Position numbers and translations under genes: made by a program. Shown piece after piece: positions 36,701-53,414 of a stretch of 64,000 nt of DNA. How positions within the stretch are numbered: the first letter of the stretch is position 1; each line of letters starts with the position of its first letter. Source of the stretch: Hyalangium minutum (GTDB lineage: Bacteria > Myxococcota > Myxococcia > Myxococcales > Myxococcaceae); NCBI RefSeq assembly GCF_000737315.1, contig NZ_JMCB01000003.1, positions 217,394 to 281,393 on the forward strand. Reading direction: 5' to 3'. The notes under the pieces are model-generated. The model did no database searches and was not told where the DNA came from. It saw only the letters and a program-made list of their open reading frames with translations.

Positions 36701-39700
36701 CTGCGGGGAACTTCCCGAGCCGCGGACCCCCGAGCAGCAGGCCCTCTGCCTGAAGGATGACCGCGAGCTGGCGGAGGTTCCGGTGGGGGTACCGCCCCTG
36801 GCTGGGCGCGTGGTGCGCATCACTGGCTCGGCGGTGGAGGAGCCAGCGGTGGCGAGCTTCCACGTGGCCCCGGGCCGCTCCACGACGACCGTGCAGACAG
36901 CGCTGCGGCGAGTGGAGCGGGACGGGCGCGAGGTGGTGCTCAACAACCTGACGCGTGCCTACTACTACGTGCAGGTGGTGGGGCACCCCGTGCTCCCGCG
37001 GGATCGCAACAGCGATGGCACGCTGGATCCCTCGGAGGAGAACGCGCCGCCGCCCGACTTCGAGGATGATGAGGACGCCCCGGGGATTCCCGAGGGAGTC
37101 GTCACGCTGAAGAGCGTCTACCGGAGCGTGGAGCCCGAGGGGCGCATCGAGCGCTACGATCGAGCGCTCGAGCACGAGTTCCGGGTGATGGAAGTGGGCT
37201 CCTCCCGGGTCACGGCACGGACGGAGCGGGGCGAGGAGCGCCCGCTGCCCCAGCCGGGGCAGCCTCCGTCGTCTGCGGCCGCCAGCCCGGAGGACGTGGC
37301 CTATCAGTTCCTGCTCAATCTGCTGGAGCCAGAAGATCCGGGGCGGACGGGGCCGCCGAGCAGCCAGTACGTGCTGCGGCTGGGCACGGACTCCTTCGGC
37401 ATCGAGTGCCCCATCGAGCTGAACGCCTCGGCGGGCACGCTGCGTGGCACGTGCGAGGGCGAGTACCTGCCGGAGGTGCTGAGCGCGGGGGATGTGCTCT
37501 ACCTCGAGGTGTACTTGCGCGGTAACGCGGAGAACGTGCTGTACCGCTTCAACTTCGACGGTCTGTCCATGCGGGAGGACTACCTGGGGGCCTCCAGCCG
37601 GTTCACCGCCCACCGCGCGGTGGAGCAGCAGAATGGCAAGCCCGTGGAGGATCGGCCGATCTCCCGGCTGAACGAGGCGCACTTCTTCCTCTCGCCTCAC
37701 GAGCTCAGCTCAGGACGGATCCGGCTCTGCACCAACGCGGAGTGCTCGGGCGACGGGGCGGTCATCAAGGACGCCACCGTCTTGTGGACGGCGGCGGGCT
37801 CCTACGCGGTGAGCGAGCAGGCGACGGGCAGTGCTCCGGGGCGGCTGGTCCAGGAGGTCACGTCAGGCGCAGGGAACGCGCGCCACCTTCGGCTGGGACT
37901 GCCTGCCTCGGTGACGGCGATGCCGGGGATCGCGGCGGCGGGCGCGGGGATCTTCCTGGTCAAGGACAGCGAGTCTCCGCCACGAGCGCGGCAGGTGGAG
38001 CGCCTGGGAACGCCGAAGGGACGCTTCCAGGGGCTGAACGCGCAGGCGCCGGGCCAGGAGGCCGTGGCGGGCATCAATGTGGCGGATCTGCACCTGGCCC
38101 TGACGCACACGGACTTCGCGGTGCCGCAGCTCGCGGGAGAGGTCTCCTTCTCCAGGACCTATGCCAACCAGAACGATCTGCCCTCGCCCATGGGCGTGGG
38201 CTGGAGGCACGAGCTGGACGGCTTCGTGCTCGAGGAGAGCCTCGGCCGCTATGTCGTGAACCTGGGTGGGCAGGCCTGGGGCTTCATCCGGTGCACCACC
38301 GTGGATGAGGAAGCGCAGACCGCCAGCGGGTGCATGACGGACAAGACCCACGGCATGTCGCTGAAGGTTGACAGCGAGGGCGTCCAGCTCACCACGGAGC
38401 AGGGGAGTGTGTACCGGTTCAACCGGCCGGCGGTGAAGCGGGACCAGGAGGGCCGGCGCAAGTGGCTGCTGACCAAGTTCCACGATGGCCATGGCCGAGG
38501 CGAGCAGGACGGGTGGACGCACCTCACCTATGCCGAGGGCACCAACCGGCTCACGCAAGCGAAGCGCACGCCTGGGGAGCTGTCGCTGGAGCTCAAGTAC
38601 TGCGAGGACTTCTCCCGCGAGGACTGCGATGGCGTGGCGCCGGACGCGCCTGGCAACCTCAAGTTCCTGGCGCGCAGCGAGGGCTTCAAGCTGCTGAAGG
38701 GCGTGGTTCTCAAGAACAGCCAGGGCCAGGAGCTGCACATCGTGCGCTTCAAGCACGACCGGTGGGGCAACCTGCTGGAGGCCGAGCGCACCACGGATCC
38801 GCCCACGCAGAAGTGGAAGTACACCTACGCGCCCATTGCCGATGACGTGCCGTCCATGATGGCCTGGCGTGCCATCAATGAGCTGTCCGAGGCTCGCCTC
38901 GAGGTGGCTGGTCATCCCCAGTGGGTCGCCACCTACGGGCGCGGCGGCGCCGAGTGCTATGCGCACCTCGAGGCCTTCGAGTGTGTGAGCTCGGTGACGC
39001 AGACAGGCTTCATGGGCAACGTCCTTCAGGTGCAGGGCGAGGCGGGCCATCGCCAGCTCAAGCTCCCCACGGGGAACTCCGCGGAGGTGTCACTCAATGA
39101 GTATGGGAACGTCACCTCCTCGGCGTCGGAGGGGCAGGCGGCGCGGCGGCTGACGTGGCCCAGCTCCCAGCGCGGGGGCGAGGTGCGGCTGGAGAAGTCA
39201 GTCTCTCCGAGCGGCCGGACCCTGCGCTATGGCACGGATCACCAGCTGCGCCTGGACGAGGTGAAGCTGGAGGGGAGCTCGGACGTGGTGGGGCTCGAAG
39301 CGGGGGCGCTCGTCTCCGTGTTGGCACGCGATGCCCGGGGCTTGCCTACCTCGGGGAAGCTGTCCACGGCCAATGGTCCGGCCGAGTGGTCCATGCCCCG
39401 CTCTCAGTCGGGGGACGTGCTGGGCCTCTCACTGGGGGGCACGCAGCTCTTCTCGCGGGTCACGGACGAGGAGGGCCGGATCACCTCGGAGCGGGATGCG
39501 CTGGGCAATACGACCACGTTCACGTTTGGCGCGTTGGGGTTGCCTGTCAGGATCCAGGTGTCCTCGGACTCCGCGACGTCGGGGCTCGTCCGCTACACGC
39601 TGGTGCTGGAGTACGACGCCTATGGGCGTCTGATCCGCCGCTTCAATGAGACGACGGGCGAAGCGGAGTCCTGGCGTTACGACGGCCAGGGCAACATGCT

Positions 39701-42700
39701 CGAGCACACGCTCACGGGGGAGCCGTCCGAACGGTGGACGTACACCTATACGTACGGCGATCAGCGGCTCACCGTGGTGGAGCGCCTGGAAGGCACGGCC
39801 TACACCCGCACCGCCCTCTTCGAGCAGGGGCTGCTGAAGAGCGAGCAGCTCAGCTACGGCACGGGCAACGCGTCACGTGCCTATGAGTACGAGGGCGGGC
39901 GGCTCAAGAAGAAGACAGACGAGCTGTCAGTCACCTGGGAATACACCTACGACAGCGCGGGCCGGCTGAAGGTGGTGAAAGCGAATGGCCGGACCGTGGA
40001 GTCCTACGGGCTGGATGAGGACGGCATCCTCATCTCCACCACGGACCGCGAAGGGCACACCACCCAGATCGGCAACGACTCGCTGGGGAGACCCGTCTCG
40101 TGGACCTATGAGGATGGGTACAAGGAGGAGGTGCGGCGGGATGCCCAGGGCGCCATCGTCTGGGAGAAGAAAATGTCTCCCGGCGCGGACAGAGCCCACG
40201 TCTTCGCTCAAGAGGTGGACGCGCTCGGACAGGTTCTGAGCCGCCGGAGCGCGGAAAATGGGAGCGGAGTGGAGATCGTCTCCACCTATGACGCCGCGGG
40301 GAGAGTGCGGACGCGAGAGGATCGGGGCAGGGGCCTGAACGAGTCCTTCGAGTATGGTGACGTGCTCGGAAGGCTGACGCGCTATCAGCGGACCGTGGCG
40401 TCCGCCGCGGGGAGCCAGAACTGGATCGAGACCCGTCAATACGTGGATGAAGGGGGCCGCACGGAGCTCCGCATCCTGCGCCAGATCGACACGGGTTTAG
40501 GGCCGCGGCAAGAGAACCAGGTCCTGGTGCTGGATGCGCTGGGGCGGGTGCTGAAGGACCAGCGTCTGGGTGCGGGGGTCTTCGAGTACACCTACGACGC
40601 GCGAGGCAACGTGCTGGAGCGTCGGCACTCCGTGCTGGGAACCACGTCGTATACCTACGACGGGTTGGGGAACCTGCTGTCGATGACGGAGCCGGGGGGC
40701 GTCACCACCACGTACACGGTGGATGCGGCAGGCCGGGTGCTCACGCAGGAGGGGCCTCACGATCAGGAGCGGTGGACGTTCACCTACGATCTGTTCGACC
40801 GGCCGCTGACGCAGGTGCTGGCGCAGGCCGGGAGCTCGCCGCAGGCTGCGTGGAGCTTCGAGTATCCGGGGAATGGGATCGTCATTGAGACGGATCCTCT
40901 GAGTATCGCGACGACCCGGCGTTTCAACTCGCGCGAGCTGCTGCTCTCGGAGGAGCGAGGGAGCCAGACGGCGGAGTACGCCTACGATGGAACGTGGCCT
41001 CGCCTGCACCTCATCTCCCATGAAGGTTCGGAGCGGAAGCTGACGCGGAGCTTCGATGACCTCGGGCGGCCGCTCCAGCAGGTGGAGTTCTGGAAACAGG
41101 GGGACCACTCCTATACGTACAGCACGACCACGGCTTGGACGGGCAGGCGCGGGACTCGCCAGGAGCGGTGGGAGGCCACGGACGCGAGCGTCCGGACGCT
41201 CACGGCGACGATCCGGGTGGACGGGCTGGGGAACCTCATCGAGCAGGAGCAGGGGGGCCTGACGGACGCTTGGGCCTACGATGCGGCCGGACTGTTGGCA
41301 CGTGAGGCACTGGCGGGGCGTCCGGAAAAGCGCTTCTTCTACGAGCAGGATCGGCTCGTCCGGATGGAGAACGGCTCGGAGACGACGCTGTACGAGTATG
41401 ACGCCGCGGGCCGGCAGTGGAAGGAGACGGATCCTTCGGGGCGCGAGCGCACGCGGGTCTACAACGCACAGGGCCTGGTGGCGAGCGAGCGCTTCGGAGC
41501 AGGGGAGACGCTGGAGTCCGCGTACACTTACGATCGAGGCGGGGGCCTCCGGACGCTGACGCGTGGCGGGGCACAGTGGAACTTCACGCATGGGCCTCGG
41601 GGGGAACTCCAGGCCGTCGAACTTCCGGGCGGGCTGGGGACCTTCACCTATCAATACGATGCCTTGCTGCAGCTCAAGGGGGTGACGCCTCCAGAGGGCG
41701 GGGGAGCAGCGGCACAGACCTTCGCGTATGACAACTGGGGCCGGCAGCTGCGCCGGACCCGAGGCTCCAGCGTCTGGTCCACGGCCTGGCAGGGCGGGTT
41801 GAGCACCACGAGCGACCCGAATGGCGACGTGGTGGAGCAGCTCTACGACGGCCGCGGCCGCGTCGTGCGTGAGCGCTTCGCTCCCGGGAACAGCAGCCGG
41901 CCCTTCCATGATCTGACAGCGGTGACGTACGCCTATGACGGGCTCGACCAGCTGCTGTTGGCGCAGGAGAGCCGCATCTCGGGAGCGGTCTCCAATGTGT
42001 ATGACTATGACGGGCGGAGCCGGCTGATCTCGATGCGGCGCGGCAGCGAGGAGATCTCATACACATACACGGAGAGCGGGCAGAAGCGGACGGTCACGTC
42101 TCCGTCCGGCACGTTGCGCTACGAATACGACGCGCAGGATCGGGTGCGGCGCATCGAGAGCAGCCAGGGGCCGGTGGTGGCGGTGGGCTGGGAGCCGGGA
42201 GGTCTGCTCTCGGAGGTCAGTGGCAACGGGGTGGTGGAGCGGTACGCGTATTGGGGCCATGGGCTCATCCGCTCCATCGCTTCGCAGTGGGACGGCCCCT
42301 CGGCGGGCACGCTGCGGTACGAGTACGGCTACGATGTGCGCGGCAACCGCCTGGAAGAGCGCTACACGGCACCGGGGGCCACGGCGTTCGAGGTGACGCA
42401 ATTCGGGTACGACGCGGCGGACCGGCTGACCGGGGTGCGCTACCCCACAGGCGAGGCCGAACTCTACCTCCTGGCAGCTGACGGCTCGCGCCTGGAGGAG
42501 AAGCACCTGCAGGGGTACTCAGGGGGACTGACTCCCCAGGCGCTGGCCAACGCCACGAATGCCACCCAGCACTGGCGGTACGCGTATGACACCGCGGGAG
42601 GGCTGCAACGCATTGATGACGTGTTGACGGGGGGCGTGGAAGCCCAGGTCACCACGGACGCGGGAGGCCGCGTCGTCGCGGAGATGCGAGGTGGCACCAC

Positions 42701-44768
42701 GCGGCAGTATGGCTGGGACGCAGGAGGGCGGCTCGCTTCGACCAAGCGGATCACCGCGCAGGAGACGGTCGAAGCCTCATATGCGTATGGCTTTGACGGA
42801 CTGCGGCGGACTCGGACCGTGAACGGAGTGAGCACCCGGTATGTGTGGGGTGCGAACGAAGAGCTGCTCGAAGAAGGGCCGGCTGTGGGAAGTCGGCTGT
42901 TGTATGCCCAGGCAGGCTTCGGAGCGGTGGCGGCGGGAGGAGAGCGGCTGCTGCGGGATGCGCTGGGCAGTGTCGTGGGGCGCGTGGGTCCGTCCACGGA
43001 GCTGTCTCGCTATGGCGCGTGGGGCGCACTCCGGCAGGGAGCGCCGCCCCAGGGCATGGAACCGTCCCTGGCCTACGCGGGGCAATCTCTCGACAGCGAA
43101 ACAGGGCTGAGCTACGCGCAGCAGCGTTGGTACAGCTCGGAGACCGGGCGTTTCCTCTCGGAGGATCCCCTGGGAGCGGCGGCGTACCTCTCGACCCCGA
43201 CCGAGCTGAACCCCTGGCTCTATGCGAGGTCCAATCCCCTGACGTACCTGGATCCCTCGGGTTTGTGGTCCTGGTCTCAGGCTGGAGTGGGGCTGGCCAG
43301 AGCTGGCAGGAAAGCCTGGCATGAAACGGCCAATGCTTTCTCGTGGGCCGCTCGTCCTCTGAACGGCGCGTTCGGAGTGTCCTCGGGACACTACGACAAG
43401 AAGGGACGATGGAGGCTTCGGGATACAGGCACCTTCAAAGAGGAGGCGAAGAAGCAGCTCAAGCAGATCAAGGAGGTCGCGGAGTACGTGAAGGACCACC
43501 CGGTGGAGACGGTGACTGGGCTGGTGGTGGAGCCGGCGAAGGCGATCGGTACCGGGATTGCGGCCTGTGTCGTCGGCGCGACGACGCAGGGCGTGGTGGG
43601 CGACGAGGCGAGCCGTGACTGTGGCGAGATGCTCCCGAAGGCGATCGGATCGGTAGCGGGCACTTTCTCCGGGGCAGGCGCGGCGATCCGGACCGCAGGA
43701 CGCGTCCGGCGTGCCGCGGCAGATATGCGTACGGCCATGAGGAGGAGCGTCTCGGCCGCTGATGACATGGCCAGGACGAGGCTGGGCCCGCAGCGCGGAT
43801 GGCCTGACGAGGCCCCGAAGCCCGCGAGGGCCGGCGCCAATGACTGCGCGGGTGGGGTCTGCCAACGCCCAGGACAATGCTTCGTGGCGGGCACTCCCGT
43901 CCTGACCCAGGAAGGTCTCAAGCCCATTGAGCAGATTGTCGAAGGGGAACTGGTCTGGTCACGTAACGAGGAGACGGGCCAATCGGATTGGCGGCCCGTG
44001 GTGCGGACGTTCGTGACGCCGGACCAGCCAGTGCTGAGACTGGAGCTGACGGACGAGGCCGGTCAGCGCACCGTGCTGGGAGTGACTGGGGAGCACCCGT
44101 TCTGGGTGAAAGACCTGGGATGGGTGGGAGCGTCGTCGCTGCTCCCCGGTCAGCAGGTGGCCAGCGCGCACGGAGGATGGCTCAAGGTGGGGGCCGCGAC
44201 GTGGGAGCAGGCGCGCGCCACCGTCTTCAACTTCGAAGTGGAGGAATTCCACACCTACTTCGTGGGCGACGTCGGCGCGTGGGTCCACAACAGCTGTCAG
44301 CAGCCATGGTTGTTCGCGGCGGGACAGGGGGATGTGTACACGCTCCTGGAGAAATTCAGGAAGACTCACACGTTAGGGAAAGCGGAGACCTTTGCGCTGG
44401 CAATGCTGGAGAGTGGTGAGCGTGCATTTGGAATCAACTCGGGTTTGTTCAAGGGCAGGGATTCCCGGATTCATGGCTTTGAAATGTTGAGGGAGCACGG
44501 GTTGCTGAAGAAAGCCACCATATACAGTCAGGAGCCCTTCCTGCTGCACGCAGAGGCTCTGGCGGTCATTCGTCTGTGGGAGCGGCTGCAGGGCAAAGAC
44601 CTTTCACTGATTCGGCTGTACGTCGACAACCCAACCTGCAAGCTGTGTCTGAGCGGCCTTCCCAGACTGCAAGTGGCGCTTGGGATCAAACGCTTGGAGA
44701 TTTATGGCCCGGGAACCATTCACATCAGCAAGCCGTCTCTCCACCCCATTGACCTTCTCAAGAATTGA
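30720..44768 (+). CDS. RHS/YD-repeat polymorphic toxin lipoprotein (4,682 aa). Layout: signal/lipobox, Ig-like domains, carboxypeptidase-regulatory-like plug, about 1,200 aa of unknown function, YD-repeat shell, RHS core (DPSGL), glycine-zipper linker, Hint domain, C-terminal deaminase-like toxin.
   Basis: The ATG at 30720 overlaps the PPIase TGA (ATGA) and is preceded by GGGGGAGG. The N-terminus MIRRAPRWLWLVLGLVTLATACD is a lipoprotein signal. Many YD repeats are present (YTYDARGNVLER, YEYDAAGRQW, YAYDGLDQL...). The RHS-associated core reads RWYSSETGRFLSEDPLG...NPWLYARSNPLTYLDPSGL. It ends at TGA 44766-44768. Confidence 0.9.
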   Translation: MIRRAPRWLWLVLGLVTLATACDRRSSEEPASAAPPAQAAQQAQALSGSTCDSVAPTGMAPGWKVAPIQAAGQNVASTIFPASVGERAILILQESAEALNQEFKTEASLNGVDWVAISRQRPLAARVVQLSASNRLELETNGGVARTSVAALSPLPCAAVEARVTHAGGSAATVETRTFTWPMGAGPALLVVESGSASQVTGRVVLGSLTVQVPAAGQLPVVEVVSPQASNTLRVEVGGSAGAWVRAVVVEPDMLPPIVSMGQPAEGAQLNASPVEVQGTAGAGAVAVKVGAVDAVLSQGQYTAQVPLVEGPNALVAEVRDQCGNVARVCRPVVLTTAPPTVVIEGVTDGQVSREPLHPTWTVTSSGPVTVEATLDGAPFVGGTAVTAEGSHELRVMVRDAAGREAQAQVGFAIDTTPPRLTLTGVEEGERRNTPAVLGFTVEEEHPGSVEATLDGAPMASGDTVSAEGAHVWTVAATDAAGNRSEVQRHFVVDVTAPTLEVLSPAPGSFTQAGSVEVVVAAADDGPVAGVWLGNAELTLGTDGKYRSLVVLEEGSNLLVLVARDAAGNSAQSSLAVTRDSTPPQLTLTTPAEGAKVAGDSVQVEGQAQDTTPLTVRVAGMTAAVAADGHFQLSVAVAQGPVSLEVVATDAAGNTARLVRGIRVNTTPPRLDLTAPASGTVTEESSIEVSGFARAADRTDTVRVEVAGTEHGVRADGSFSVQVPLEVGLNTVSVTAVDGYGLRTPRTVRVERQGPQGPGPGDGGSGDGSGGGTDGGSGEDTPDAGSGAPDAGSPGPVPDGGIPSEPPVLVLASPQENSLWGVERVSVLGRVEGGDLPLQVTVDGLPAAVTGRQFSASVALPEGSSMLHVRAVDALGRIAEVRRQVRVDQTPPFLEVTRPEQPSTTVSESPYLVEGLAGDAYLAGVTVNGAPVMVLAGHFSSSVALVAGDNTVEVEAVDLAGNRSRAVRTLRVEALPPQLTVLEPVDGSEATEPVVRVTVKVESSAPLDEVRIGTGIAANLGSGQYTAQVPLALGENVIPVSARDTLGMTGSATVRVRYRDPSTEPLTVTGVDPSDQATELEPDTLVNVAFNKAVKPASVRAGFTVSVEGQPLAGGWSVAHGAQIVSFIARDPLPEGATLQVRVAGVEPVQGPGMQGEFRSMFTVRRPLTRLRGQVVDARREPVSGVRVEVEGQGLFTRTGADGNWALFGVQPGQVVLRYEGGASSEGQVFPTVRRRFAVEAERDNEESTVVLTPVDAESAEPVDTSLPLHLTFGGRHGALEVDIPAGGLILEGGSTRGLVTLTQLPLHSLPVPTEGALRPVVVWQLQPAGTRLVRPVVLRLPNRLSAPPGSRAALFTYDPEAHRLHIAGLATLSADGTQLVSDGVLEAGSLEYFGYLPLPEESSVARAGAVSPRVANLGPLPRPPSDGLIRPLTQGFGLDPGSALAIWDSYQPFIAPAAVMGTVRGPREQAVALDLSSPSLGESRRVALDSQLRYRMPLSVQARSLYPLSSSGRDSLVLALEGVGPEGQRLGPPSGGSWRQESPQGQRAELSTQVELSLGTSSLWATGTTARGRNVLRLNAELSLADGGVPDGGATSGLLRVQRGDGGSAGGEDSEGLVRFAGMPVRVTDGWHEGGSISGPAGRYAASIIMLQSSWIPPASVLACVRLPIGWNVQSWVAWDGRVRTRKAPSTAEECSGPWEVLAWPSPIIPDIDVLVDVRWLHGNITFVDRQGEPLPPPCSDLVVRQGTEVTGLSQDAVRSTEVHFFREDNLSTPIVSYAVADPEQCDSYPGAPHGRYAKVRYGPSTLSRVASRRDSQRLLPGDRLVVFAVNHATGYSGMEVVTVPSVNQSSRAEDGSCPADDAAGGPMAVQDGSRTVSVSRCTLQDLGIEADLKLYPPEIDVRVERQSRAEGSSQEALEPSLVRHKGAATTRDNFVSVATHWRVRRQPARSWDPGVLPPVNSSCEGGSQAAGSTCAPQILLDEGPRGTWAEHYCGELPEPRTPEQQALCLKDDRELAEVPVGVPPLAGRVVRITGSAVEEPAVASFHVAPGRSTTTVQTALRRVERDGREVVLNNLTRAYYYVQVVGHPVLPRDRNSDGTLDPSEENAPPPDFEDDEDAPGIPEGVVTLKSVYRSVEPEGRIERYDRALEHEFRVMEVGSSRVTARTERGEERPLPQPGQPPSSAAASPEDVAYQFLLNLLEPEDPGRTGPPSSQYVLRLGTDSFGIECPIELNASAGTLRGTCEGEYLPEVLSAGDVLYLEVYLRGNAENVLYRFNFDGLSMREDYLGASSRFTAHRAVEQQNGKPVEDRPISRLNEAHFFLSPHELSSGRIRLCTNAECSGDGAVIKDATVLWTAAGSYAVSEQATGSAPGRLVQEVTSGAGNARHLRLGLPASVTAMPGIAAAGAGIFLVKDSESPPRARQVERLGTPKGRFQGLNAQAPGQEAVAGINVADLHLALTHTDFAVPQLAGEVSFSRTYANQNDLPSPMGVGWRHELDGFVLEESLGRYVVNLGGQAWGFIRCTTVDEEAQTASGCMTDKTHGMSLKVDSEGVQLTTEQGSVYRFNRPAVKRDQEGRRKWLLTKFHDGHGRGEQDGWTHLTYAEGTNRLTQAKRTPGELSLELKYCEDFSREDCDGVAPDAPGNLKFLARSEGFKLLKGVVLKNSQGQELHIVRFKHDRWGNLLEAERTTDPPTQKWKYTYAPIADDVPSMMAWRAINELSEARLEVAGHPQWVATYGRGGAECYAHLEAFECVSSVTQTGFMGNVLQVQGEAGHRQLKLPTGNSAEVSLNEYGNVTSSASEGQAARRLTWPSSQRGGEVRLEKSVSPSGRTLRYGTDHQLRLDEVKLEGSSDVVGLEAGALVSVLARDARGLPTSGKLSTANGPAEWSMPRSQSGDVLGLSLGGTQLFSRVTDEEGRITSERDALGNTTTFTFGALGLPVRIQVSSDSATSGLVRYTLVLEYDAYGRLIRRFNETTGEAESWRYDGQGNMLEHTLTGEPSERWTYTYTYGDQRLTVVERLEGTAYTRTALFEQGLLKSEQLSYGTGNASRAYEYEGGRLKKKTDELSVTWEYTYDSAGRLKVVKANGRTVESYGLDEDGILISTTDREGHTTQIGNDSLGRPVSWTYEDGYKEEVRRDAQGAIVWEKKMSPGADRAHVFAQEVDALGQVLSRRSAENGSGVEIVSTYDAAGRVRTREDRGRGLNESFEYGDVLGRLTRYQRTVASAAGSQNWIETRQYVDEGGRTELRILRQIDTGLGPRQENQVLVLDALGRVLKDQRLGAGVFEYTYDARGNVLERRHSVLGTTSYTYDGLGNLLSMTEPGGVTTTYTVDAAGRVLTQEGPHDQERWTFTYDLFDRPLTQVLAQAGSSPQAAWSFEYPGNGIVIETDPLSIATTRRFNSRELLLSEERGSQTAEYAYDGTWPRLHLISHEGSERKLTRSFDDLGRPLQQVEFWKQGDHSYTYSTTTAWTGRRGTRQERWEATDASVRTLTATIRVDGLGNLIEQEQGGLTDAWAYDAAGLLAREALAGRPEKRFFYEQDRLVRMENGSETTLYEYDAAGRQWKETDPSGRERTRVYNAQGLVASERFGAGETLESAYTYDRGGGLRTLTRGGAQWNFTHGPRGELQAVELPGGLGTFTYQYDALLQLKGVTPPEGGGAAAQTFAYDNWGRQLRRTRGSSVWSTAWQGGLSTTSDPNGDVVEQLYDGRGRVVRERFAPGNSSRPFHDLTAVTYAYDGLDQLLLAQESRISGAVSNVYDYDGRSRLISMRRGSEEISYTYTESGQKRTVTSPSGTLRYEYDAQDRVRRIESSQGPVVAVGWEPGGLLSEVSGNGVVERYAYWGHGLIRSIASQWDGPSAGTLRYEYGYDVRGNRLEERYTAPGATAFEVTQFGYDAADRLTGVRYPTGEAELYLLAADGSRLEEKHLQGYSGGLTPQALANATNATQHWRYAYDTAGGLQRIDDVLTGGVEAQVTTDAGGRVVAEMRGGTTRQYGWDAGGRLASTKRITAQETVEASYAYGFDGLRRTRTVNGVSTRYVWGANEELLEEGPAVGSRLLYAQAGFGAVAAGGERLLRDALGSVVGRVGPSTELSRYGAWGALRQGAPPQGMEPSLAYAGQSLDSETGLSYAQQRWYSSETGRFLSEDPLGAAAYLSTPTELNPWLYARSNPLTYLDPSGLWSWSQAGVGLARAGRKAWHETANAFSWAARPLNGAFGVSSGHYDKKGRWRLRDTGTFKEEAKKQLKQIKEVAEYVKDHPVETVTGLVVEPAKAIGTGIAACVVGATTQGVVGDEASRDCGEMLPKAIGSVAGTFSGAGAAIRTAGRVRRAAADMRTAMRRSVSAADDMARTRLGPQRGWPDEAPKPARAGANDCAGGVCQRPGQCFVAGTPVLTQEGLKPIEQIVEGELVWSRNEETGQSDWRPVVRTFVTPDQPVLRLELTDEAGQRTVLGVTGEHPFWVKDLGWVGASSLLPGQQVASAHGGWLKVGAATWEQARATVFNFEVEEFHTYFVGDVGAWVHNSCQQPWLFAAGQGDVYTLLEKFRKTHTLGKAETFALAMLESGERAFGINSGLFKGRDSRIHGFEMLREHGLLKKATIYSQEPFLLHAEALAVIRLWERLQGKDLSLIRLYVDNPTCKLCLSGLPRLQVALGIKRLEIYGPGTIHISKPSLHPIDLLKN
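43878..44297 (+). other. Hint (Hedgehog/intein-like, pre-toxin HINT) domain inside the RHS protein.
   Basis: It starts CFVAGTPVLTQEGLKPIEQIV and ends VGDVGAWVHNSC. This is the canonical Cys-1 ... His-Asn-(Cys/Ser) intein/Hint boundary arrangement, about 140 aa long. Confidence 0.7.
44298..44765 (+). other. C-terminal toxin domain of the RHS protein; candidate nucleic-acid deaminase (CDA fold).
   Basis: LLHAEALAV (HAE at 44547-44555) is followed about 27 aa later by NPTCKLC (PCxxC at 44631-44648). This is the zinc-binding H[AC]E ... PCxxC signature of the cytidine/nucleotide deaminase superfamily. It sits at the extreme C-terminus after RHS core and Hint, the typical toxin position. Confidence 0.6.
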
Positions 44769-44780
44769 CCCGGCATATAG

Positions 44781-46247
44781 CTATTGCGCCTGCGGATTCT
44801 GAGTCGTGGGCGGGCGCGCTCGTTCCCAAGCAGGGTCGTAGCACTCCTCCTGCCACTGGTAGGTATCGTCGCTGCATGGCGGTCTCTTGTCGGCCACGCG
44901 CACCCAGCAGCCGCCATGAATGATTTTCTCCCAGTCTCGCTTGCACGGGGGGCGGCGCTGGCCCGGGAGCGGTTGCTTGGGCATGTCCAGGGAGATGGAT
45001 CTGGCCTCAGAGGGAATCGATTGAACTTCCATCCGAGTGGTGAGCGCATCGTCTCCCAATCCGCGGGTACCGGCATCTGGCTCCATGCCCGCATCCAGCG
45101 CTTCAGCACGCGCCGTCTCAGACGGCTTTGCGCTCCACTCGGGAGCCATCCAGCAGGGCCCCACCACCGCCAGAGACATCGTGAGCAGCGCGAGGAGATT
45201 CCTCCAAGGGACGGGCCGAACTTGCTGCCTCGCCTGGAGAGTTCCTGCTTTGTGCTCAGTAGCTTTGGCTGGGGCCGTCTTCGCATCGACGGGCCTCGCG
45301 GGCCCGGCTTGAGTCTGTACCGCAGGCTTCACTGAAGCCCAGAGAGGAACATCCGCTGCGGAACCTAGATGCTCCGCCGAGGTTTCCGCTGCTTGTGCCA
45401 ACTCACTTGCCGTCCCGCGAGCCTCAGGCTCCGCCGCGAGCAGCCGCTCCACCAGCGCCGAGAGCTCAGGCACCACTCGGGGGTTGAGTTCATGCGTGCA
45501 TTGGCGTCGCGCAACTCCACCCTGGATTTGTTTCTTGAGGTCTTCAGGCTCCGTGCCAGGAGGGGGATAGATCCGAGTCAATAACCGGTACAGCGTCACG
45601 CCCAGCGCATAGAGATCGTCCGCCGGGGTGGCGTGGTAGCGCGCTCCCGGCGTGCTCCAGTGTTGCCACTCGAAGCGTAGCGCCTCGGGGCTGCGGTACT
45701 CAGGCGTGTTGGGAGGCAGCACCCGATGGGTGAGTGGGGGAGCGCCCTTCCACGTGCCCGAACCAAAATCCGTGAGCACCGCCCGGCCCTCGGGCTCCAC
45801 AAGAATGTTGTCGCCCTTCAGGTCGCGGTGCAGGCATTCCCCGCGGTGCAACACCTCCAACCCCCATGCCAGCTGGGCCACCACCCGGAGCACTTCGCGG
45901 CTGGTGGGAGTGTGCATCCGCGCCCACTCGTACAGCCGCTGGCCCCGGATCCACTCCATCACCACATAGGGATGCCGGACTCCAGGCTCGGCCTCCCACC
46001 AACCTTGGTCGATGAGTCGAGGCACGGCCGGGTGGCGGGTGCGTCTGAGCAACTCCACCTCCCGTTCGAAGCGCGGGTCATGAGGGAACACCGCCATCTT
46101 CAGTGCCACGGGCGGGGAGCCCGGGTCGTCGGCGCGCCGGGCGCGGAACACGGCGCCGTAGCTGCCCCGGCCGGCATAGCCCTCGATGCGCCAGGGGCCG
46201 ACCAGATCTCCGATGTTCAGCGAGTCAGGTGTCCTCGTGCCCGTCAT
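44781..46247 (-). CDS. Membrane-anchored Ser/Thr protein kinase (Hanks type) with a C-terminal Cys-rich extracytoplasmic domain.
   Basis: Kinase motifs are present: GRGSYGAVF...ALK (gly-loop and VAIK-like), HRDLKGDNILV (catalytic loop), DFGSG, PEYRSPE (APE-like). A TM helix LLALLTMSLAVVGPCW is followed by a 5-Cys tail. Confidence 0.9.
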   Translation of the reverse strand: MTGTRTPDSLNIGDLVGPWRIEGYAGRGSYGAVFRARRADDPGSPPVALKMAVFPHDPRFEREVELLRRTRHPAVPRLIDQGWWEAEPGVRHPYVVMEWIRGQRLYEWARMHTPTSREVLRVVAQLAWGLEVLHRGECLHRDLKGDNILVEPEGRAVLTDFGSGTWKGAPPLTHRVLPPNTPEYRSPEALRFEWQHWSTPGARYHATPADDLYALGVTLYRLLTRIYPPPGTEPEDLKKQIQGGVARRQCTHELNPRVVPELSALVERLLAAEPEARGTASELAQAAETSAEHLGSAADVPLWASVKPAVQTQAGPARPVDAKTAPAKATEHKAGTLQARQQVRPVPWRNLLALLTMSLAVVGPCWMAPEWSAKPSETARAEALDAGMEPDAGTRGLGDDALTTRMEVQSIPSEARSISLDMPKQPLPGQRRPPCKRDWEKIIHGGCWVRVADKRPPCSDDTYQWQEECYDPAWERARPPTTQNPQAQ

Positions 46248-46302
46248 GGCACCGGAGACTACCCAAGGGGTCGCTCGCCGTCATGCCGCTCTTTCAGGTA
46301 GG

Positions 46303-47517
46303 ATGGCGGCGATGGAGAATCTCCCGAGAGAGACGGAGCGTCTCCGGCCGTGGACGGTTCACAGGCGTCTCGCTCTGGCAACCGCTTGGCTCGGGAGTTG
46401 CTTGAGGCCGGGCGGTATGACGGGACTGCACGACCGATTCTTCCGCTACCTCTTCAACCACACCGCGCGCACCGAGGCTTTGCTGCGGCACAACCTGCCC
46501 GCGTTCCTCATGGCCGAGGTGGATTGGCCGTCGCTGCGGCGAGAGTCCGGCACGCTGGTCGACGGCGAGCGCGAGACTCGCAAGGACCTGCTCTTCTCCG
46601 CCCGCTGTCTCCAGTCCGCACCGGAGGAGCCTCCGCACTTCTTTCTCATCGAGCATCAATCCTCGGTGGACCCGTGGATGGCACTGCGGATGCACGACTA
46701 CGCTTGGCGTCTCATCCAGCACTGGCGAGAGCAGCACCCCCAGAGCCGATGGATTCCCGAGGTGACGCCCCTGGTGGTGTACCCCCGGCAAGGTCGGACG
46801 TGGTCAGCGCCCCTGCGGCTGGGTGACCACTATCTGGTGCGAGCGCGCGCGGACAAAGAGGGGCTGCCTTGGATTTTGCGTTCTGGGTACTGGATGGACG
46901 CCGTCTCGAACGAGCAGGAGGCACGGGCTCACGGGGGACCACCGCTGGTTTCTCTGGGATTGCTGGTGCTCAGCTTCGCGGGTACGCGGCAATTGGCGAG
47001 GAGGTTGCCGCACTGGTGCGATCTGTTTGCCCAGGTGTACGCGACAGATGGTCCCCAAACGCTCTATCGCATGGTGCGCTATGTGCACCATCTGGGGGAC
47101 GAGGAGGCCGTTGCGGCAATTCGGCGCGTGCTACATTCCATTATGGAGTCCACAAGGGCGGAGGCGTTCATGCGAACCATGGCAGAGGTGCTCAAAGAGC
47201 GGGGACGCCGCGAGGGGTGGATCGAGGGGAAGGCAGAAGGGAAGGCCGAGGGGAAGGCCGAGGGGAAGGCCGAGGGGAAGGCCGAGGGGAAGGCCGAGGG
47301 GAAGGCCGAGGGGAAGGCCGAGGGGCTCGCCGAGGGAGAGGCCAAGGGCTTGGTCAAGGCTCTCCTCCGCTTGTTAGCGGCACGAGGCCTACGTGTCGAT
47401 GAGGCCTCCCAGGAGCGCATCCAGAATTGCGGCGATGTCGCCACACTGGAGCGCTGGCTCGACCGGGCTCTGAACGCTACGCGGCTCACCGACGTCCTGG
47501 ACGGCCCCGCGCAGTAA
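46303..47517 (+). CDS. Rpn-family (YhgA-like, Transposase_31) PD-(D/E)XK recombination-promoting nuclease/putative transposase with a C-terminal DUF4351-like domain and an internal (EGKA)n repeat.
   Basis: FFLIEHQSSVDPWMALRMHDYAWRLIQHW matches the hallmark LIEHQS...MAFRLL.Y motif of E. coli RpnA-E/YhgA. The N-terminal H-D-x-x-F-(R/K) motif HDRFFRYLF is present. The C-terminus LVKALLRLLAARGLRVDEASQERIQNCGDVATLERWL is DUF4351-like. The start was chosen at the first ATG (46303, MAAMENL) that does not overlap the divergent kinase start. Confidence 0.85.
   Translation: MAAMENLPRETERLRPWTVHRRLALATAWLGSCLRPGGMTGLHDRFFRYLFNHTARTEALLRHNLPAFLMAEVDWPSLRRESGTLVDGERETRKDLLFSARCLQSAPEEPPHFFLIEHQSSVDPWMALRMHDYAWRLIQHWREQHPQSRWIPEVTPLVVYPRQGRTWSAPLRLGDHYLVRARADKEGLPWILRSGYWMDAVSNEQEARAHGGPPLVSLGLLVLSFAGTRQLARRLPHWCDLFAQVYATDGPQTLYRMVRYVHHLGDEEAVAAIRRVLHSIMESTRAEAFMRTMAEVLKERGRREGWIEGKAEGKAEGKAEGKAEGKAEGKAEGKAEGKAEGLAEGEAKGLVKALLRLLAARGLRVDEASQERIQNCGDVATLERWLDRALNATRLTDVLDGPAQ
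47224..47343 (+). repeat. In-frame 12-nt tandem repeat GAGGGGAAGGCC: 8 near-perfect copies plus 2 degenerate copies, encoding (EGKA)8-EGLA-EGEA inside the Rpn-like gene.
   Basis: Read directly: gaggggaaggca gaagggaaggcc (gaggggaaggcc)x6 gaggggctcgcc gagggagaggcc. Confidence 0.9.
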
Positions 47518-47522
47518 TCGCG

Positions 47523-48770
47523 TCAGAACAGCGCGTGCTCCGCGAGGAGCACCGCCAGCCCCACGATGAAGCTCAACAGCGTCACTGGCACGCCCACGCG
47601 CAGGTAGTCCAGGAAGGACATCTTCACCTTGTCGCGCGCGGCCTCGAAGACGATCAGGTTCGCCACGCTGCCAATCAACGTCAGGTTGCCCGCCAGCGTG
47701 GAGCACAGCGCCAGCACGTGCCAGCCCAGCTCCGGGTCCTGCAGCGTCGGAACCCACGTGCGCGCCAGCATCACGAACGGCACGTTGCTGAACAGGTTCG
47801 ACGCCACCAGCGTCAGCGCCGCGAACCCCAGCGTCTCCCGCCACGGTGGCCCCGCCATCAACGGCGCGAACAGCGCCCGCAGCTCCTCCGTCCAGCCGTA
47901 CTTGTTCACCCCGTACACCACGATGAACAGGCTGGCGAAGAACACCAGCAGCACGAAGTCCACTCGCTCCATGATGGCCCGAGGCTCTCGGCGCGCCATG
48001 GCCATCACCACCGCCGCTCCCGTCAGCGCGCTCCAGCTCATGGAGAAGCCCGCGAAGAAGGCCACCACCACCGCCGCCATCACCGCCACCGTCAGCACCA
48101 TCAGCGGTCGATCCACCGGAGGCGGCTGCGGCTGCGGCTCGAAGCGCTTCGTGGGCAGCTCCTTGCGGAACAGGTACAGCAGCATTGCGATGACAATCCC
48201 CGTGGACAGGATCGCCGGCAGCGCCATGTACGCGGCGAAGCTCGCGTAGGACAGCTTCGAGGCCCCCTGAATCAGCATGTTCTGCGGGTTGCCCGTGAAC
48301 GTGGCCACCGAGCCGCTGTTGGAGCCCATGCACACCGCCAGCAGGTACGGCACGGGCGGCAGGCGCGCGTCCTCCACCACCACCAGCACCAGCGGCGTCA
48401 GCATCAGGCACACGGTGTCATTCACCAGGAACGCGGACAGGAGCGCGCTGATCCCCGTCACCGCCGCCAGCAGCAGCCGGGGCGTGTGCGCCAGCCGCAC
48501 CGTGTGGGCCCCCGCCGTCCGGAAGAACGCCGCCTGCGCCAGGTACGCCGCCAGCAGCATCATCCCCAGCAGCAGGACGATCGTGTCCAGATCCACCGCG
48601 TGCCGCGAGACGTCCTCGCTGTGGTTGAAGACCTCGGCGGGGGTGACGACGCCCAGGACCACCATGAGCACGGCACCCAGCAGGGCGCCGCCCGGCCGAT
48701 CCAGCTTCAGGAACGGGAGGCGCGCCCCGGCAATGAACACATACGTCAGCAAGAAGATGGCGAGGGCCAC
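47523..48770 (-). CDS. ArsB/NhaD-superfamily anion permease (YbiR/P-protein-like transporter), 415 aa, polytopic.
   Basis: It has 10+ hydrophobic helices. GNPQNMLI and SNLFSNVP motifs are typical of the ArsB/NhaD/CitMHS permease superfamily. It uses a GTG start (an in-frame TAG lies 10 codons upstream). Confidence 0.75.
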   Translation of the reverse strand: MALAIFLLTYVFIAGARLPFLKLDRPGGALLGAVLMVVLGVVTPAEVFNHSEDVSRHAVDLDTIVLLLGMMLLAAYLAQAAFFRTAGAHTVRLAHTPRLLLAAVTGISALLSAFLVNDTVCLMLTPLVLVVVEDARLPPVPYLLAVCMGSNSGSVATFTGNPQNMLIQGASKLSYASFAAYMALPAILSTGIVIAMLLYLFRKELPTKRFEPQPQPPPVDRPLMVLTVAVMAAVVVAFFAGFSMSWSALTGAAVVMAMARREPRAIMERVDFVLLVFFASLFIVVYGVNKYGWTEELRALFAPLMAGPPWRETLGFAALTLVASNLFSNVPFVMLARTWVPTLQDPELGWHVLALCSTLAGNLTLIGSVANLIVFEAARDKVKMSFLDYLRVGVPVTLLSFIVGLAVLLAEHALF

Positions 48771-48838
48771 GAAGCGCGGACAGTACCCCAGGTGCTTCTG
48801 CTACGCTGCAATCCTCACGCATCGCCTCAAGGGACATC

Positions 48839-49915
48839 ATGACCGGCACCAGCCGGCCCGAAGAGGGGCCGGTGCAGCTCGACGGCAGCGAAGGGGAGGG
48901 GGGAGGGCAGATCCTCCGCTCGGCGCTCGCCCTGTCGCTCATCACCGGCCGCCCGTTCCACCTCACCCGCCTGCGTGAGCGCAGGGATCCCCCCGGCCTG
49001 CGCCCTCAGCACCTGGCCTGCGTGCGAGGCGCCGAGGCCCTCAGCTCCAGCACCAGCGTGGGCGCCGTCCTGGGCGGCTCAGAGCTGTCCTTCACCCCCG
49101 GCCCCGTGCGTCCCGGCGACTACGTACTGGAGGTGGGCACTGCAGGCAGCACCCCGTTGCTCTTCCAGTGCCTCTTCTTCCCATTGGCCCTGGCCGGAGG
49201 CGGGAGCCTCACCCTGCGCGGCGGCACGCACCTGCCGCACAGCCCCAGCTACCACTACCTCGCCAACGTCTGGCTGCCGGTGATGCACGCCTATGGGTTC
49301 CCGGCCGCGCTCCGGCTGACGCACGCCGGCTTCTACCCAGAGGGTGGCGGAGAGTTTCAAGGAGAGATCTCGGCTCCGGCCGAGCCGCCCCGGCTCGTGG
49401 ATCTGCCCACGCGCGGCATGCTGCAGGACATCACCGTCAGCACCTTCGTGGGGGGCCTGCCGTTCACCATCGCCGATCGCCAGTCCCGTGCCGCCGAGGC
49501 CGCCTTGCGTGAGCGGGGGCTCTACAGCCTCGTGCAGAACCGGGCCTTGCCCGTGGCGGGCTCTGCCGGAACCGTCACTTTCATCCTGGCGCAGTTCGAG
49601 AACACCTTCGCGGGCTTCACCGCCATCGGTGAGCGCGGACGGCCCGCAGAGGAAGTGGGGCGCGAGGCCGCTGACGCCGTGGCCCGCTTCATGGAATCCG
49701 CCGGCGCCATCGACGAGCACCTGGGGGATCAGATCCTGCTCCCGGCGGCGCTGCTGGCCTCGGGGCGGCTGGGCCCGGCCTCACCGGGAACCACGCGCTT
49801 CACGGCCGCGAAGGTCACCGAGCACCTGACGACGCACGCACGGGTCCTCGAGCGCTTCCTGCCAGTCAAAGTGACGGTGGAGCCGGGCGGTACGGTGGAG
49901 GTCCGCCCGGCTTGA
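48839..49915 (+). CDS. rtcA: RNA 3'-terminal phosphate cyclase.
   Basis: LDGSEGEGGGQILRSALALSLITGRPFHLTRLRERRDPPGLRPQHLACVRGAEAL matches the RtcA N-terminal signature (GS.GEGGGQILR...R..PGL..QH). The 358-aa length fits. Confidence 0.9.
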   Translation: MTGTSRPEEGPVQLDGSEGEGGGQILRSALALSLITGRPFHLTRLRERRDPPGLRPQHLACVRGAEALSSSTSVGAVLGGSELSFTPGPVRPGDYVLEVGTAGSTPLLFQCLFFPLALAGGGSLTLRGGTHLPHSPSYHYLANVWLPVMHAYGFPAALRLTHAGFYPEGGGEFQGEISAPAEPPRLVDLPTRGMLQDITVSTFVGGLPFTIADRQSRAAEAALRERGLYSLVQNRALPVAGSAGTVTFILAQFENTFAGFTAIGERGRPAEEVGREAADAVARFMESAGAIDEHLGDQILLPAALLASGRLGPASPGTTRFTAAKVTEHLTTHARVLERFLPVKVTVEPGGTVEVRPA

Positions 49916-49963
49916 CACGGAAACGGTGTCTTGCAGCTTCAGGCCCGGGTAGCCGGGTGAGGC

Positions 49964-50311
49964 TCAGGACTCTTCTTCGCCCTCGGCCGCCGCAGCCGCC
50001 GAAGTACCGAAGGAGTTCGAGTCCGCGATCTCCTTCGTCGTGTTGCGGTAGGCCCGGAGCGCGAACGGCGTGGCTGCCAGGAACACGAGCCCGGCCAGGC
50101 CGATGGCGGCCCAGGGCACCGGGGTCTCCTTGATCTGGATGTCCTTGCTATAGGCGTTCATGTTGCCCCCGAGCTGCTGAGCCTTGAGGGCGGACTTCTC
50201 CTCATCGGACATCTCGGAGGGGGGCTGGAACTCCTGCACGGGGCGGCCAGCCAGCACGGCGCTACCCGAGAGCAGGGCGGACAGGAGGACGAGTCGCGAG
50301 AGCGTACGCAT
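49964..50311 (-). CDS. Small hypothetical secreted/membrane protein (signal peptide plus C-terminal TM helix).
   Basis: MRTLSRLVLLSALLSGSAVLAGRP is a signal peptide. A later hydrophobic helix reads WAAIGLAGLVFLAATPFAL. The start is set at the second Met (signal-peptide geometry). It could begin at 50329. Confidence 0.45.
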   Translation of the reverse strand: MRTLSRLVLLSALLSGSAVLAGRPVQEFQPPSEMSDEEKSALKAQQLGGNMNAYSKDIQIKETPVPWAAIGLAGLVFLAATPFALRAYRNTTKEIADSNSFGTSAAAAAEGEEES

Positions 50312-50428
50312 GGAATCCCATCCTATCACGGGTCGGGCCCTCCATCGCCAGAGGGGACCATCGCCGCCCGTACAGCTCCATGAAAGCAGGCTTGCGTCCG
50401 TCCCAGCCGTCCATTAGGCGCGGAGCGA

Positions 50429-52144: not shown

Positions 52145-52146
52145 GG

Positions 52147-52172
52147 GGGGCCCGCCCAGACATACGGGCCCC
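52147..52172 (+). terminator. GC-rich hairpin immediately after the sppA stop (7-bp stem GGGGCCC/GGGCCCC, 12-nt loop), with no U-tract.
   Basis: ggggccc gcccagacatac gggcccc starts 3 nt after TAG 52142-52144. It may be a factor-dependent or non-canonical terminator. Weak call. Confidence 0.25.
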
Positions 52173-52253
52173 TGATCGACGCGCTGCGCAAAAGGATACG
52201 TTCACTTTCAGGCAATTCCGCTATCCTCCCGGTAGGAGGGCCCCCGCCAGACC

Positions 52254-53414
52254 ATGAACGTCGTCTTCATCTCGCCGCACTTTCCCCCTCACTTCGTGCA
52301 CTTCGTCAGCGCGCTTCGCGAGCGCGGCATCCACGTGTTGGGGATCGGGGACGCTCCGTATGACACCTTGCAGCAAGAGCTGCGCACCGTGTTGACGGAG
52401 TACTACTTCACGCCCCGGCTCAGTGACGCAGAGGCGATGTTGCGCGCGGTCGGCTACTTCACCTGGCGCTACGGCCGCATTCACCGCATCGACTCGCTCA
52501 ACGAGACGTGGCTGGAGGTCGAGGCCTACCTGCGTGAGGACTTTCACGTGCCAGGCCTGCTGCCCTCGGAGGTGCGCCAGCTGCGCTCGAAGCTGGGCAT
52601 GCACGATCTCTTCAAGGCAGCCGGTATTCCGCACCCGGACGCGATCGCCGCCCAGGACGCCGCCACCGTGAAGGCCTTTGGCCAGAAGGTGGGCTATCCG
52701 CTCGTGCTCAAGCCGGACGTGGGCGTGGGCGCCGCCGACACCTTCACCGTGAAGAGTGACGCGGACGTGGACGCGGCGTTCTCCAAGCCGCTGCAGGGCT
52801 ACGCGGCGCAGAAGTTCGTGAAGGGCACCATCGTCACCTACGACGGCATGGTGGATGGGAACGGCAAGATCGTCTGCTCGTTCAGCCACGAGTACAGCAC
52901 CGGCATCATGGAGTCGGTGCTCGAGCAGCGCGACATCTCCATCTGGAGCCAGCGTGAGCTGCCGCCAGCGCTCGAGGAGATGGGCCGCAAGACGCTCGAC
53001 GCGCTCGGGCTTCGAGAGCGCTGGTTCCACCTGGAGTTCTTCCGTCTGGAGGATGGGAGCTACGCCGCACTGGAGGCCAACCTGCGTCCGCCAGGGGCCT
53101 TCTTGATGGACATGATGAACTACGCCTGCGACATCGACGTGTACCGGCTGTGGGCGCGGATGATCTCCGGCGAGACCGTGAGCGACTTTCAGTACAGCCG
53201 CAAGTACCACGTGTGTCACACGTCCCGCCGGGCGGGACGTACGTACAAATATCCGCACGCGGAGGTGGTGTCCCGGCTGGGCGGCGCATTGATCGATCAC
53301 CGCGAGCTGCCGGGGGTCTTCCACAGCGCGCTGGGCACCGAGATGTACCTGTCTCGGCACCAGGAGCTGGACGCCATGCGCGAGGCCGTCCAGTTCATCC
53401 AGGCGCGGCCCTGA
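52254..53414 (+). CDS. ATP-grasp domain enzyme (carboxylate-amine ligase-like), 386 aa.
   Basis: The fold layout is VVFISPHFPPHFVHF...IHVLGIGD (pre-ATP-grasp), then a central region PLVLKPDVGVGAADTFTV, then C-terminal WFHLEFFRLEDGSYAALEANLRPPG, typical of ATP-grasp_4-like proteins. Confidence 0.7.
   Translation: MNVVFISPHFPPHFVHFVSALRERGIHVLGIGDAPYDTLQQELRTVLTEYYFTPRLSDAEAMLRAVGYFTWRYGRIHRIDSLNETWLEVEAYLREDFHVPGLLPSEVRQLRSKLGMHDLFKAAGIPHPDAIAAQDAATVKAFGQKVGYPLVLKPDVGVGAADTFTVKSDADVDAAFSKPLQGYAAQKFVKGTIVTYDGMVDGNGKIVCSFSHEYSTGIMESVLEQRDISIWSQRELPPALEEMGRKTLDALGLRERWFHLEFFRLEDGSYAALEANLRPPGAFLMDMMNYACDIDVYRLWARMISGETVSDFQYSRKYHVCHTSRRAGRTYKYPHAEVVSRLGGALIDHRELPGVFHSALGTEMYLSRHQELDAMREAVQFIQARP

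Follow-up and report, generated by a model that had tools for sequence, protein, structure and literature searches.

A giant RHS toxin gene of Hyalangium minutum with a predicted deaminase tail and no linked immunity gene

The general view is that a polymorphic toxin is viable only when an immunity gene is linked to it. We describe an allele at which this partner is missing. It is a giant RHS toxin gene in a 64,000-nucleotide stretch of DNA from the myxobacterium Hyalangium minutum (contig NZ_JMCB01000003.1; this whole stretch is called the window below, and positions are counted from its first letter), and it ends in a predicted deaminase domain that stands directly before a convergent protein kinase gene. 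Among the closest described systems are the large Sec-dependent surface Rhs/YD toxins, a class described in a review (PMC10433427) that includes WapA of Bacillus subtilis and the kin-discrimination proteins Rhs4/Rhs5 of Myxococcus xanthus. The H. minutum protein, which is known from sequence alone, is like these toxins in its size of ~4000-4700 aa, its signal peptide, its immunoglobulin (Ig)-like N-terminal repeats and its RHS/YD shell, and also in having a polymorphic C-terminal toxin as a tail that is hypervariable between strains. It differs from them in lacking a linked immunity gene, in carrying a HINT domain before the toxin, in the apparent translational coupling of its gene to a peptidyl-prolyl isomerase (PPIase) gene, and in following an Ig-repeat open reading frame (ORF) of at least 9938 aa.

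The tail itself resembles the MafB19-like clade of deaminases (PF14437; Iyer et al. 2011, PMC3239186) in its predicted deaminase fold with a C-terminal hairpin, in its HxE and CxxC zinc motifs, and in its association with RHS and HINT; a MafB19 deaminase behind HINT is a combination that was already listed in that study. Unlike members of the clade, the H. minutum tail scores below the Pfam threshold and has Asn in place of the basic residue of the +xxCxxC motif. In addition, the partner of this deaminase subfamily is Imm1-like, whereas SUFU/SUKH proteins are listed for the MafB19 clade, and in the H. minutum window the partner is missing. DddA/DddI and other interbacterial deaminase pairs are alike in that a toxin with a deaminase fold forms the C-terminus of a polymorphic effector. 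DddA is delivered by a T6SS (type VI secretion system), and its immunity gene lies next to it. Its structures (PDB 6u08 and 8e5d) are among the structural matches of the H. minutum tail, but the match is a distant one, with a TM score of ~0.4 and 11-13% identity. On the side of the immunity proteins, the closest described family is Imm1 (Pfam PF14430), which has an alpha+beta fold, a conserved C-terminal Trp and an association with deaminase toxins (Iyer et al. 2011, PMC3239186). The proteins encoded directly behind homologues of the H. minutum tail share the small size and the conserved C-terminal Trp, but none of them reaches Pfam significance. Compared with these systems, the H. minutum locus lacks both the adjacent immunity gene that is a feature of polymorphic toxin loci and one signature residue of its deaminase clade.

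The stop codon of the RHS ORF is the TGA at 44766-44768. The convergent kinase ORF, which encodes 488 aa, has its stop codon at 44781-44783 (CTA on the forward strand, i.e. TAG), so that only 12 nt separate the two stops. No terminator-like or promoter-like sites were found in the region from 44300 to 45300. The DNA context of six homologues of the toxin domain could be retrieved (loci L001, L024, L025, L026, L027 and L036). In all six, a co-directional ORF of ~117-155 aa overlaps the toxin stop codon or starts at most 46 nt from it. The products of these post-toxin ORFs are mutually homologous and share the invariant residues W42, G45, G47 and W137. Weak matches to Pfam Imm1 (E ~1e-3) were obtained for two of five, and no match is significant. 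A profile search of 5.8 billion proteins recovered 18 further members of this immunity family, 121-197 aa in length, none of which has a Pfam annotation, and a metagenome scan with a narrow toxin alignment returned one locus. Judged by their sequences, these Imm1-like partners would in effect constitute an unannotated sister family of Imm1 that serves this deaminase subfamily.

No member of the Imm1-like family was detected in the window. Two immunity-family profiles (A1 and A4), run with hmmsearch --max on the six-frame translation of the window (1028 segments), gave E-values no better than 3.6 and 2.3; positive controls for the same profiles gave values of 1e-34 to 1e-68. Likewise, a single-sequence tblastn search of the window with the L001 immunity ORF produced chance matches only (best E 0.13). 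The other small ORFs of the window were considered as immunity genes and ruled out: each is a housekeeping gene or a syntenic core gene, and none matched an immunity family. One of the candidates rejected, a 121-aa ORF at 49964-50329, is also present in L034, a locus that has no RHS gene.

Members of the Imm1-like family also occur away from toxins, in L031 as a solitary gene and in L028 within an array that includes Imm11 and ankyrin genes. The L028 array (positions 1012-6339; metagenome-assembled genome GCA_037025765.1) is a co-directional poly-immunity array composed of Imm11, several unannotated small ORFs, the Imm1-like member and ankyrin-repeat proteins. In L001, a 141-aa ORF (5292-5717, minus strand) lies between the immunity gene and a Bmp lipoprotein gene. 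It resembles a C-terminal fragment of a transposase, has no Pfam match, and is possibly a mobile-element relic beside the cassette.

Orthologous loci gave the same picture as the homologous toxins. In L032 and L033, the loci that carry the 87% and 81% identical kinases, the kinase gene again has the giant RHS gene converging on it, with products of 4714 and 4497 aa, respectively. The RHS bodies are 79-80% identical to that of the window at the nucleotide level, and the kinase genes 85-90%. By blastn, positions 36000-43133 of the window align with L032 at 79.7%, positions 43134-44778 do not align, positions 44779-47264 align at 90.1%, and positions 47295-53042 align at 95.9%; the pattern of alignment with L033 is the same. 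Nucleotide homology with the RHS genes of L032 and L033 ends at 43133 and 43168, respectively, just upstream of the core-end motif YLDPSGL. Given that there is no alignment between 43133 and 44779, we delimited this interval as an allele-specific variable cassette (Table 1). In L032, the cassette encodes a different toxin and then a co-directional 167-aa ORF that overlaps the toxin stop and matches DUF2247 (E 3.7e-15), a family named Imm38 by Zhang et al. 2012 (PMC3482391). In L033, it encodes yet another toxin, and a co-directional ORF of 122 aa lies between this toxin and the stop of the kinase. The gap from the post-toxin ORF to the kinase stop is 73 nt in L032 and 56 nt in L033. The H. minutum toxin allele has no linked immunity gene, while the sister alleles of this locus and the homologous toxins retain theirs.

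More distant relatives define the inner boundary of the exchange. L001, which comes from a Myxococcaceae metagenome-assembled genome, matches window positions 40004-44290 at 74%, a region that comprises the RHS end, the linker and HINT, and the match resumes in the Rpn/YhgA-like gene (46320-47516, 70-76% nucleotide identity). The Archangium loci L002 and L003 have only the HINT module in common with the window, and their homology ends at 44291 and 44296. The recombination boundaries are placed at ~43133, 44290-44296 and 44779. The toxin has a G+C content (GC) of 55% and a third-position GC (GC3) of 0.70. Both values are higher elsewhere in the gene (67% and 0.87), with 67% GC also in the linker and HINT that precede the toxin; the cassettes of all relatives are also low in GC (46-57%). 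Given these homology breaks and this fall in GC, we conclude that the deaminase was swapped in right behind HINT and that the cassette ends 10 nt past the toxin stop. The toxin is only 46% identical in amino acid sequence to that of L001. The Rpn/YhgA-like gene beyond the kinase is 67-75% identical at the amino acid level to the flank gene of L001 (L001 6926-8057); it is present in L032 too and is absent from L034. It belongs to the type called 'recombination-promoting nuclease/transposase'; that it takes part in cassette exchange would be speculation.

Table 1. Features of the RHS toxin locus and its flank, in window coordinates
Feature	Positions	Strand	Length or sequence	Basis or remark
Giant RHS/YD-shell polymorphic toxin gene	30720-44768	+	4682 aa	One intact ORF
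Predicted signal peptide and lipobox (LATAC)	30720-30785	+	MIRRAPRWLWLVLGLVTLATAC	Read from translation
Variable cassette specific to the allele, from the core end through linker, HINT and toxin to 10 nt past the toxin stop	43134-44778	+		blastn against L032 and L033
RHS core-end motif YLDPSGL (PxxxxDPxGL type)	43245-43265	+		Motif search
Pretoxin HINT domain (CFVAGTPV ... WVHNSC)	43878-44297	+		PF07591 PT-HINT, E 1.9e-24
Putative divergent MafB19-like deaminase toxin domain	44298-44765	+	156 aa	Homology, conserved residues, AlphaFold2 model
Spacer between convergent stops	44769-44780		12 nt, cccggcatatag	Read from sequence; immunity-gene position in relatives
Ser/Thr protein kinase gene with transmembrane segment and Cys-rich C-terminal tail	44781-46247	-		Pfam Pkinase, E 2.5e-31
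Antisense ORF, no gene	44784-45335	+	183 aa	In register antisense to kinase; 16% Arg
Rpn/YhgA-like (Transposase_31, PD-(D/E)XK) gene	46320-47517	+		PF04754, E 1.7e-22; conserved flank of variable region

When 1.84 billion representative proteins were searched exhaustively, 62 relatives of the tail were recovered (best E 2.2e-25). These relatives differ widely in length, and in nearly all of them the region that matches the tail is C-terminal. Against MafB19-deam (PF14437), the domain in the window reaches 20.6 bits, short of the gathering score of 27, whereas eight of nine homologues that were scanned reach the gathering score, with 29.8-49.7 bits. Its membership in MafB19-deam therefore rests on transitive homology. 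An alignment of 15 sequences has 11 invariant residues (R23, T33, A35, G47, N49, H86, E88, D112, C116, C119 and G131), every one of which is retained in the window domain. The zinc site, formed by H86-A-E88 (HAE) and by C116-K-L-C119 within PTCKLC, falls in invariant columns, and both of its parts lie at helix starts in an AlphaFold2 model of the tail (pLDDT 83.8, pTM 0.81). The signatures that Iyer et al. 2011 gave for MafB19 are likewise found, with N49 after strand 2, V111 at the end of strand 3, G131 at the start of strand 4, and the HxE motif. The top Foldseek matches of the model in the PDB are all deaminases (DYW, cytidine deaminases, DddA, blasticidin-S deaminase and TadA), with modest scores (E 2e-3 to 0.1, TM 0.4-0.53), and a profile search against PDB sequences gave weak matches to dCMP and cytidine deaminases. 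Of the other searches, a PDB sequence search with the single domain returned one spurious match only, a word-indexed protein search with the toxin domain returned no match, and tblastn of the toxin against plasmids returned nothing. Taken together, the homology and the model indicate that the C-terminal tail has a deaminase fold with intact catalytic residues.

The tail ORF is complete to the natural C-terminus of the family. The complete ORF and the full set of invariant residues are consistent with continued selection on the toxin. At one conserved position, however, the H. minutum domain departs from its family. Asn113 (codon AAC, 44628-44630) occupies the '+' of +xxCxxC, a position that is Arg in 51 and Lys in 2 of the 53 relatives that have the motif. 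The change, from YVDR to YVDN, lies beside the zinc-binding CxxC, and '+xxCxxC in Hel-3' is one of the MafB19-clade signatures of Iyer et al. 2011 (PMC3239186).

The gene on the other side of the spacer is 100% identical to a Ser/Thr kinase of H. minutum. Full-length orthologues of the kinase are 87, 81 and 78% identical to it and keep its Cys-rich C-terminal tail. The substitutions that separate it from these orthologues fall mostly at third codon positions (48 of 86, 58 of 101 and 59 of 116), a pattern that fits a gene and thus supports its coding status. In L034, the locus of the 78% identical orthologue, the kinase adjoins the same CitMHS, RtcA and S49 peptidase genes in the absence of an RHS gene. 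Because it holds the same place there, we regard the kinase as an ancestral neighbour that stands outside the toxin system, and for the same reason we rejected the idea that immunity, in a fused or alternative form, is provided by the kinase or by its C-terminal domain. Other reading frames around the junction were rejected as well. The frame of the plus-strand ORF antisense to the kinase is broken by three stops in L032 and by four in L033, and a Pfam scan of this ORF found no match. Two minus-strand ORFs over the 3' end of the toxin (44720-45286 and 44758-44946) were ruled out since their codon-position GC is unlike that of genes.

The segment that begins at the kinase has a character of its own. 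Third-position GC is 0.74-0.78 in the kinase and Rpn-like genes (44781-47517), compared with 0.87-0.95 in the adjacent core genes, and the segment is 85-90% identical to the sister genomes, compared with 96% for the core genes beyond 47295. It is thus a segment, situated beside the RHS tip, that is evolving faster or was exchanged more recently.

These results bear on an earlier note on the same DNA, which had been made from the sequence alone. It had read the C-terminal domain as a deaminase, the downstream gene as a Ser/Thr kinase and the plus-strand ORF opposite the kinase as an artefact, and had pointed to a 12-nt gap with no immunity gene beside the toxin. Each of these readings agrees with our analysis, and the positions that it gave for the two stop codons are correct. 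The comparison of homologous loci that it had proposed as a check proved decisive, since homologous toxins and orthologous loci carry the small downstream gene that is missing here. The change of Arg/Lys to Asn in the clade motif was absent from that note and raises the possibility of an attenuated toxin.

The RHS gene has the codon-position GC (0.70/0.52/0.86) that is typical of host genes. The order of domains in its product is signal peptide and lipobox, Glucodextran_B and Ig-like domains, RHS repeats, YLDPSGL, linker, HINT and, lastly, the putative 156-aa deaminase. From the N-terminal sequence, Sec export and lipidation of the protein are predicted. The Pfam domains Glucodextran_B and Big_13/Big_7 (Ig-like) are found within the N-terminal 1000 aa, and RHS_repeat (PF05593) matches in 41700-43800 with an E-value of 1.3e-17. 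A motif search located 15 YDxxG motifs between 39612 and 43392, and the RHS orthologues in L032 and L033 match TEN_YD-shell. The HINT domain scores 86.9 bits against PT-HINT, for which the cut-off is 27.7, and has both the CFVAGT and the VHNSC motifs. Pfam scans of the RHS protein detected neither of the T6SS markers PAAR and VgrG.

Two further genes precede the RHS gene. Directly upstream is the Ig-repeat ORF of at least 9938 aa (window 41-29857, plus strand), which contains Big_7, TIG/IPT, Big_5 and LVIVD repeats. It is among the largest bacterial ORFs, and its true start may precede the window; no C-terminal toxin domain was detected in it. A PPIC-type PPIase gene (29830-30723, plus strand; Rotamase, E 1.3e-18) shares 28 nt with the end of the Ig-repeat ORF, and its overlap with the RHS gene at the start codon is 4 nt (ATGA). 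The overlaps suggest a translationally coupled operon of three genes, Ig-repeat ORF, PPIase and RHS, in which the PPIase may be a dedicated folding chaperone.

We propose that the hypervariable tip of a conserved giant RHS toxin, Sec-exported and probably a lipoprotein, was rebuilt by cassette exchange, and that a low-GC MafB19-like deaminase domain acquired horizontally was thereby set behind HINT. In this exchange, or in a later deletion, an Imm1-like immunity gene of ~140 aa would have been left out, so that the toxin stop now lies next to the kinase stop. The RHS protein would be displayed on the cell surface with its shell enclosing the tail. Cuts made at the DPxGL motif and by HINT would then release the deaminase into a contacted cell, where the zinc site H86/E88/C116/C119 may deaminate nucleic-acid bases. 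The producer would be protected in trans by an unlinked, orphan Imm1-like gene elsewhere in its genome. Support for trans immunity comes from other genomes, in which both orphan copies and poly-immunity arrays of the Imm1-like family occur, and acquisition of the immunity gene first and of the toxin second is an evolutionarily viable order. That exchange or deletion left the toxin without its linked partner, and that protection most likely comes in trans from an unlinked Imm1-like orphan, is an explanation that we favour only tentatively, given several observations that weigh against it. No unlinked immunity gene was identified for H. minutum in a search that covered the 64-kb window and a protein collection. 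None of the 18 further family members could be assigned to H. minutum, which is weak evidence since that search was limited by its word index, albeit in a collection that indexes H. minutum proteins. No remnant of an immunity sequence was found at the junction, and acquisition without an immunity gene cannot be told from a later deletion of that gene. Lastly, Asn113 in the +xxCxxC motif means that the toxin may not be fully active, in which case no immunity would be needed.

This last point leads to the possible, though rather unlikely, explanation that the allele is decaying: the change from Arg/Lys to Asn would have lowered or ended the activity of the toxin, the immunity gene would have become dispensable and been deleted, and the tail would be a relic that requires no immunity from any part of the genome. 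The uniqueness of Asn113 among the relatives and the place of this residue in the published clade signature are in keeping with such attenuation, as are the low Pfam score of the domain and the failure of the word-index-limited protein search to attribute any Imm1-like family member to H. minutum. On the other hand, the catalytic His, Glu and Cys residues are intact, along with all of the other invariant residues, and the ORF runs to its natural end. If the toxin were neutral, moreover, it would be an unlikely coincidence for a deletion to end within 10 nt past the toxin stop. The low Pfam score may merely reflect divergence, and the role of the basic residue is a presumed one.

The earlier note had offered three explanations for the missing gene, namely that immunity is encoded elsewhere, that it is unnecessary while the cargo is sequestered in the RHS cocoon, and that the target is non-self, such as prey. 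The first is the most likely of these, whereas the other two are both weakened by the post-toxin ORFs that the sister scaffolds keep; the proposal of a non-self target does coincide with a published hypothesis for deltaproteobacteria (PMC3482391). In its fuller form, the argument for dispensable immunity is that the toxin never reaches the cytoplasm of a sibling: it would leave the producer unfolded through Sec, be enclosed by the RHS shell, and enter only those non-kin or prey cells that have the right receptor or translocation route. The predicted signal peptide and lipobox would imply export without cytoplasmic folding, and Zhang et al. 2012 (PMC3482391) read the excess of toxins over immunity proteins in deltaproteobacteria and actinobacteria as inter-specific weaponry. 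However, the same RHS scaffold keeps a co-directional post-toxin ORF in two sister genomes, one of them Imm38/DUF2247, which indicates that the RHS delivery platform alone does not make immunity dispensable, and all six homologous deaminases keep their partner. In addition, a 2023 review (PMC10433427) names fellow myxobacteria as the targets of myxobacterial Rhs, outer membrane exchange and T6SS toxins and states that action on other species is unreported. We therefore consider restriction of the target to be unlikely. Least probable by far is an artefact of assembly or sequencing, in which an immunity gene of ~0.5 kb collapsed out of the draft. The genome is indeed a draft (the identical kinase lies on a 1.23-Mb contig), and low-GC inserts can be under-covered, but the junction is clean, both flanking ORFs are intact, and there are no ambiguous bases. 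Nor is there a repeat to cause a collapse, and the contig is very long, with the region near its middle.

An excess of toxin over immunity genes in deltaproteobacteria and myxobacteria has already been documented at the level of genome counts. The case described here is thus real and traceable, and not unprecedented, with an evidence base of one locus. What it adds is an intact toxin allele that lost, or never had, its immunity gene, an event that can be dated against the sister alleles that keep theirs. It also offers a definite case in which to ask how a toxin without a guard is tolerated by social bacteria, whether by orphan immunity in trans, by attenuation through a single substitution, or by restriction of the target. 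Uncharacterised MafB19-type deaminases are being mined as enzymes for base editing and sequencing, and inhibitors are needed for their cloning. For this reason, the Imm1-like partner family, newly defined and unannotated, is practically useful. It is also conceivable, though we think it quite improbable, that the tail is fully active and that no immunity gene exists anywhere in H. minutum, with delivery confined to non-kin or prey cells, for example by way of a receptor or import route missing from the producer. If this were true, the protein would be the first myxobacterial Rhs toxin dedicated to inter-species killing or predation, and a polymorphic toxin made safe for its producer by targeting and not by immunity.

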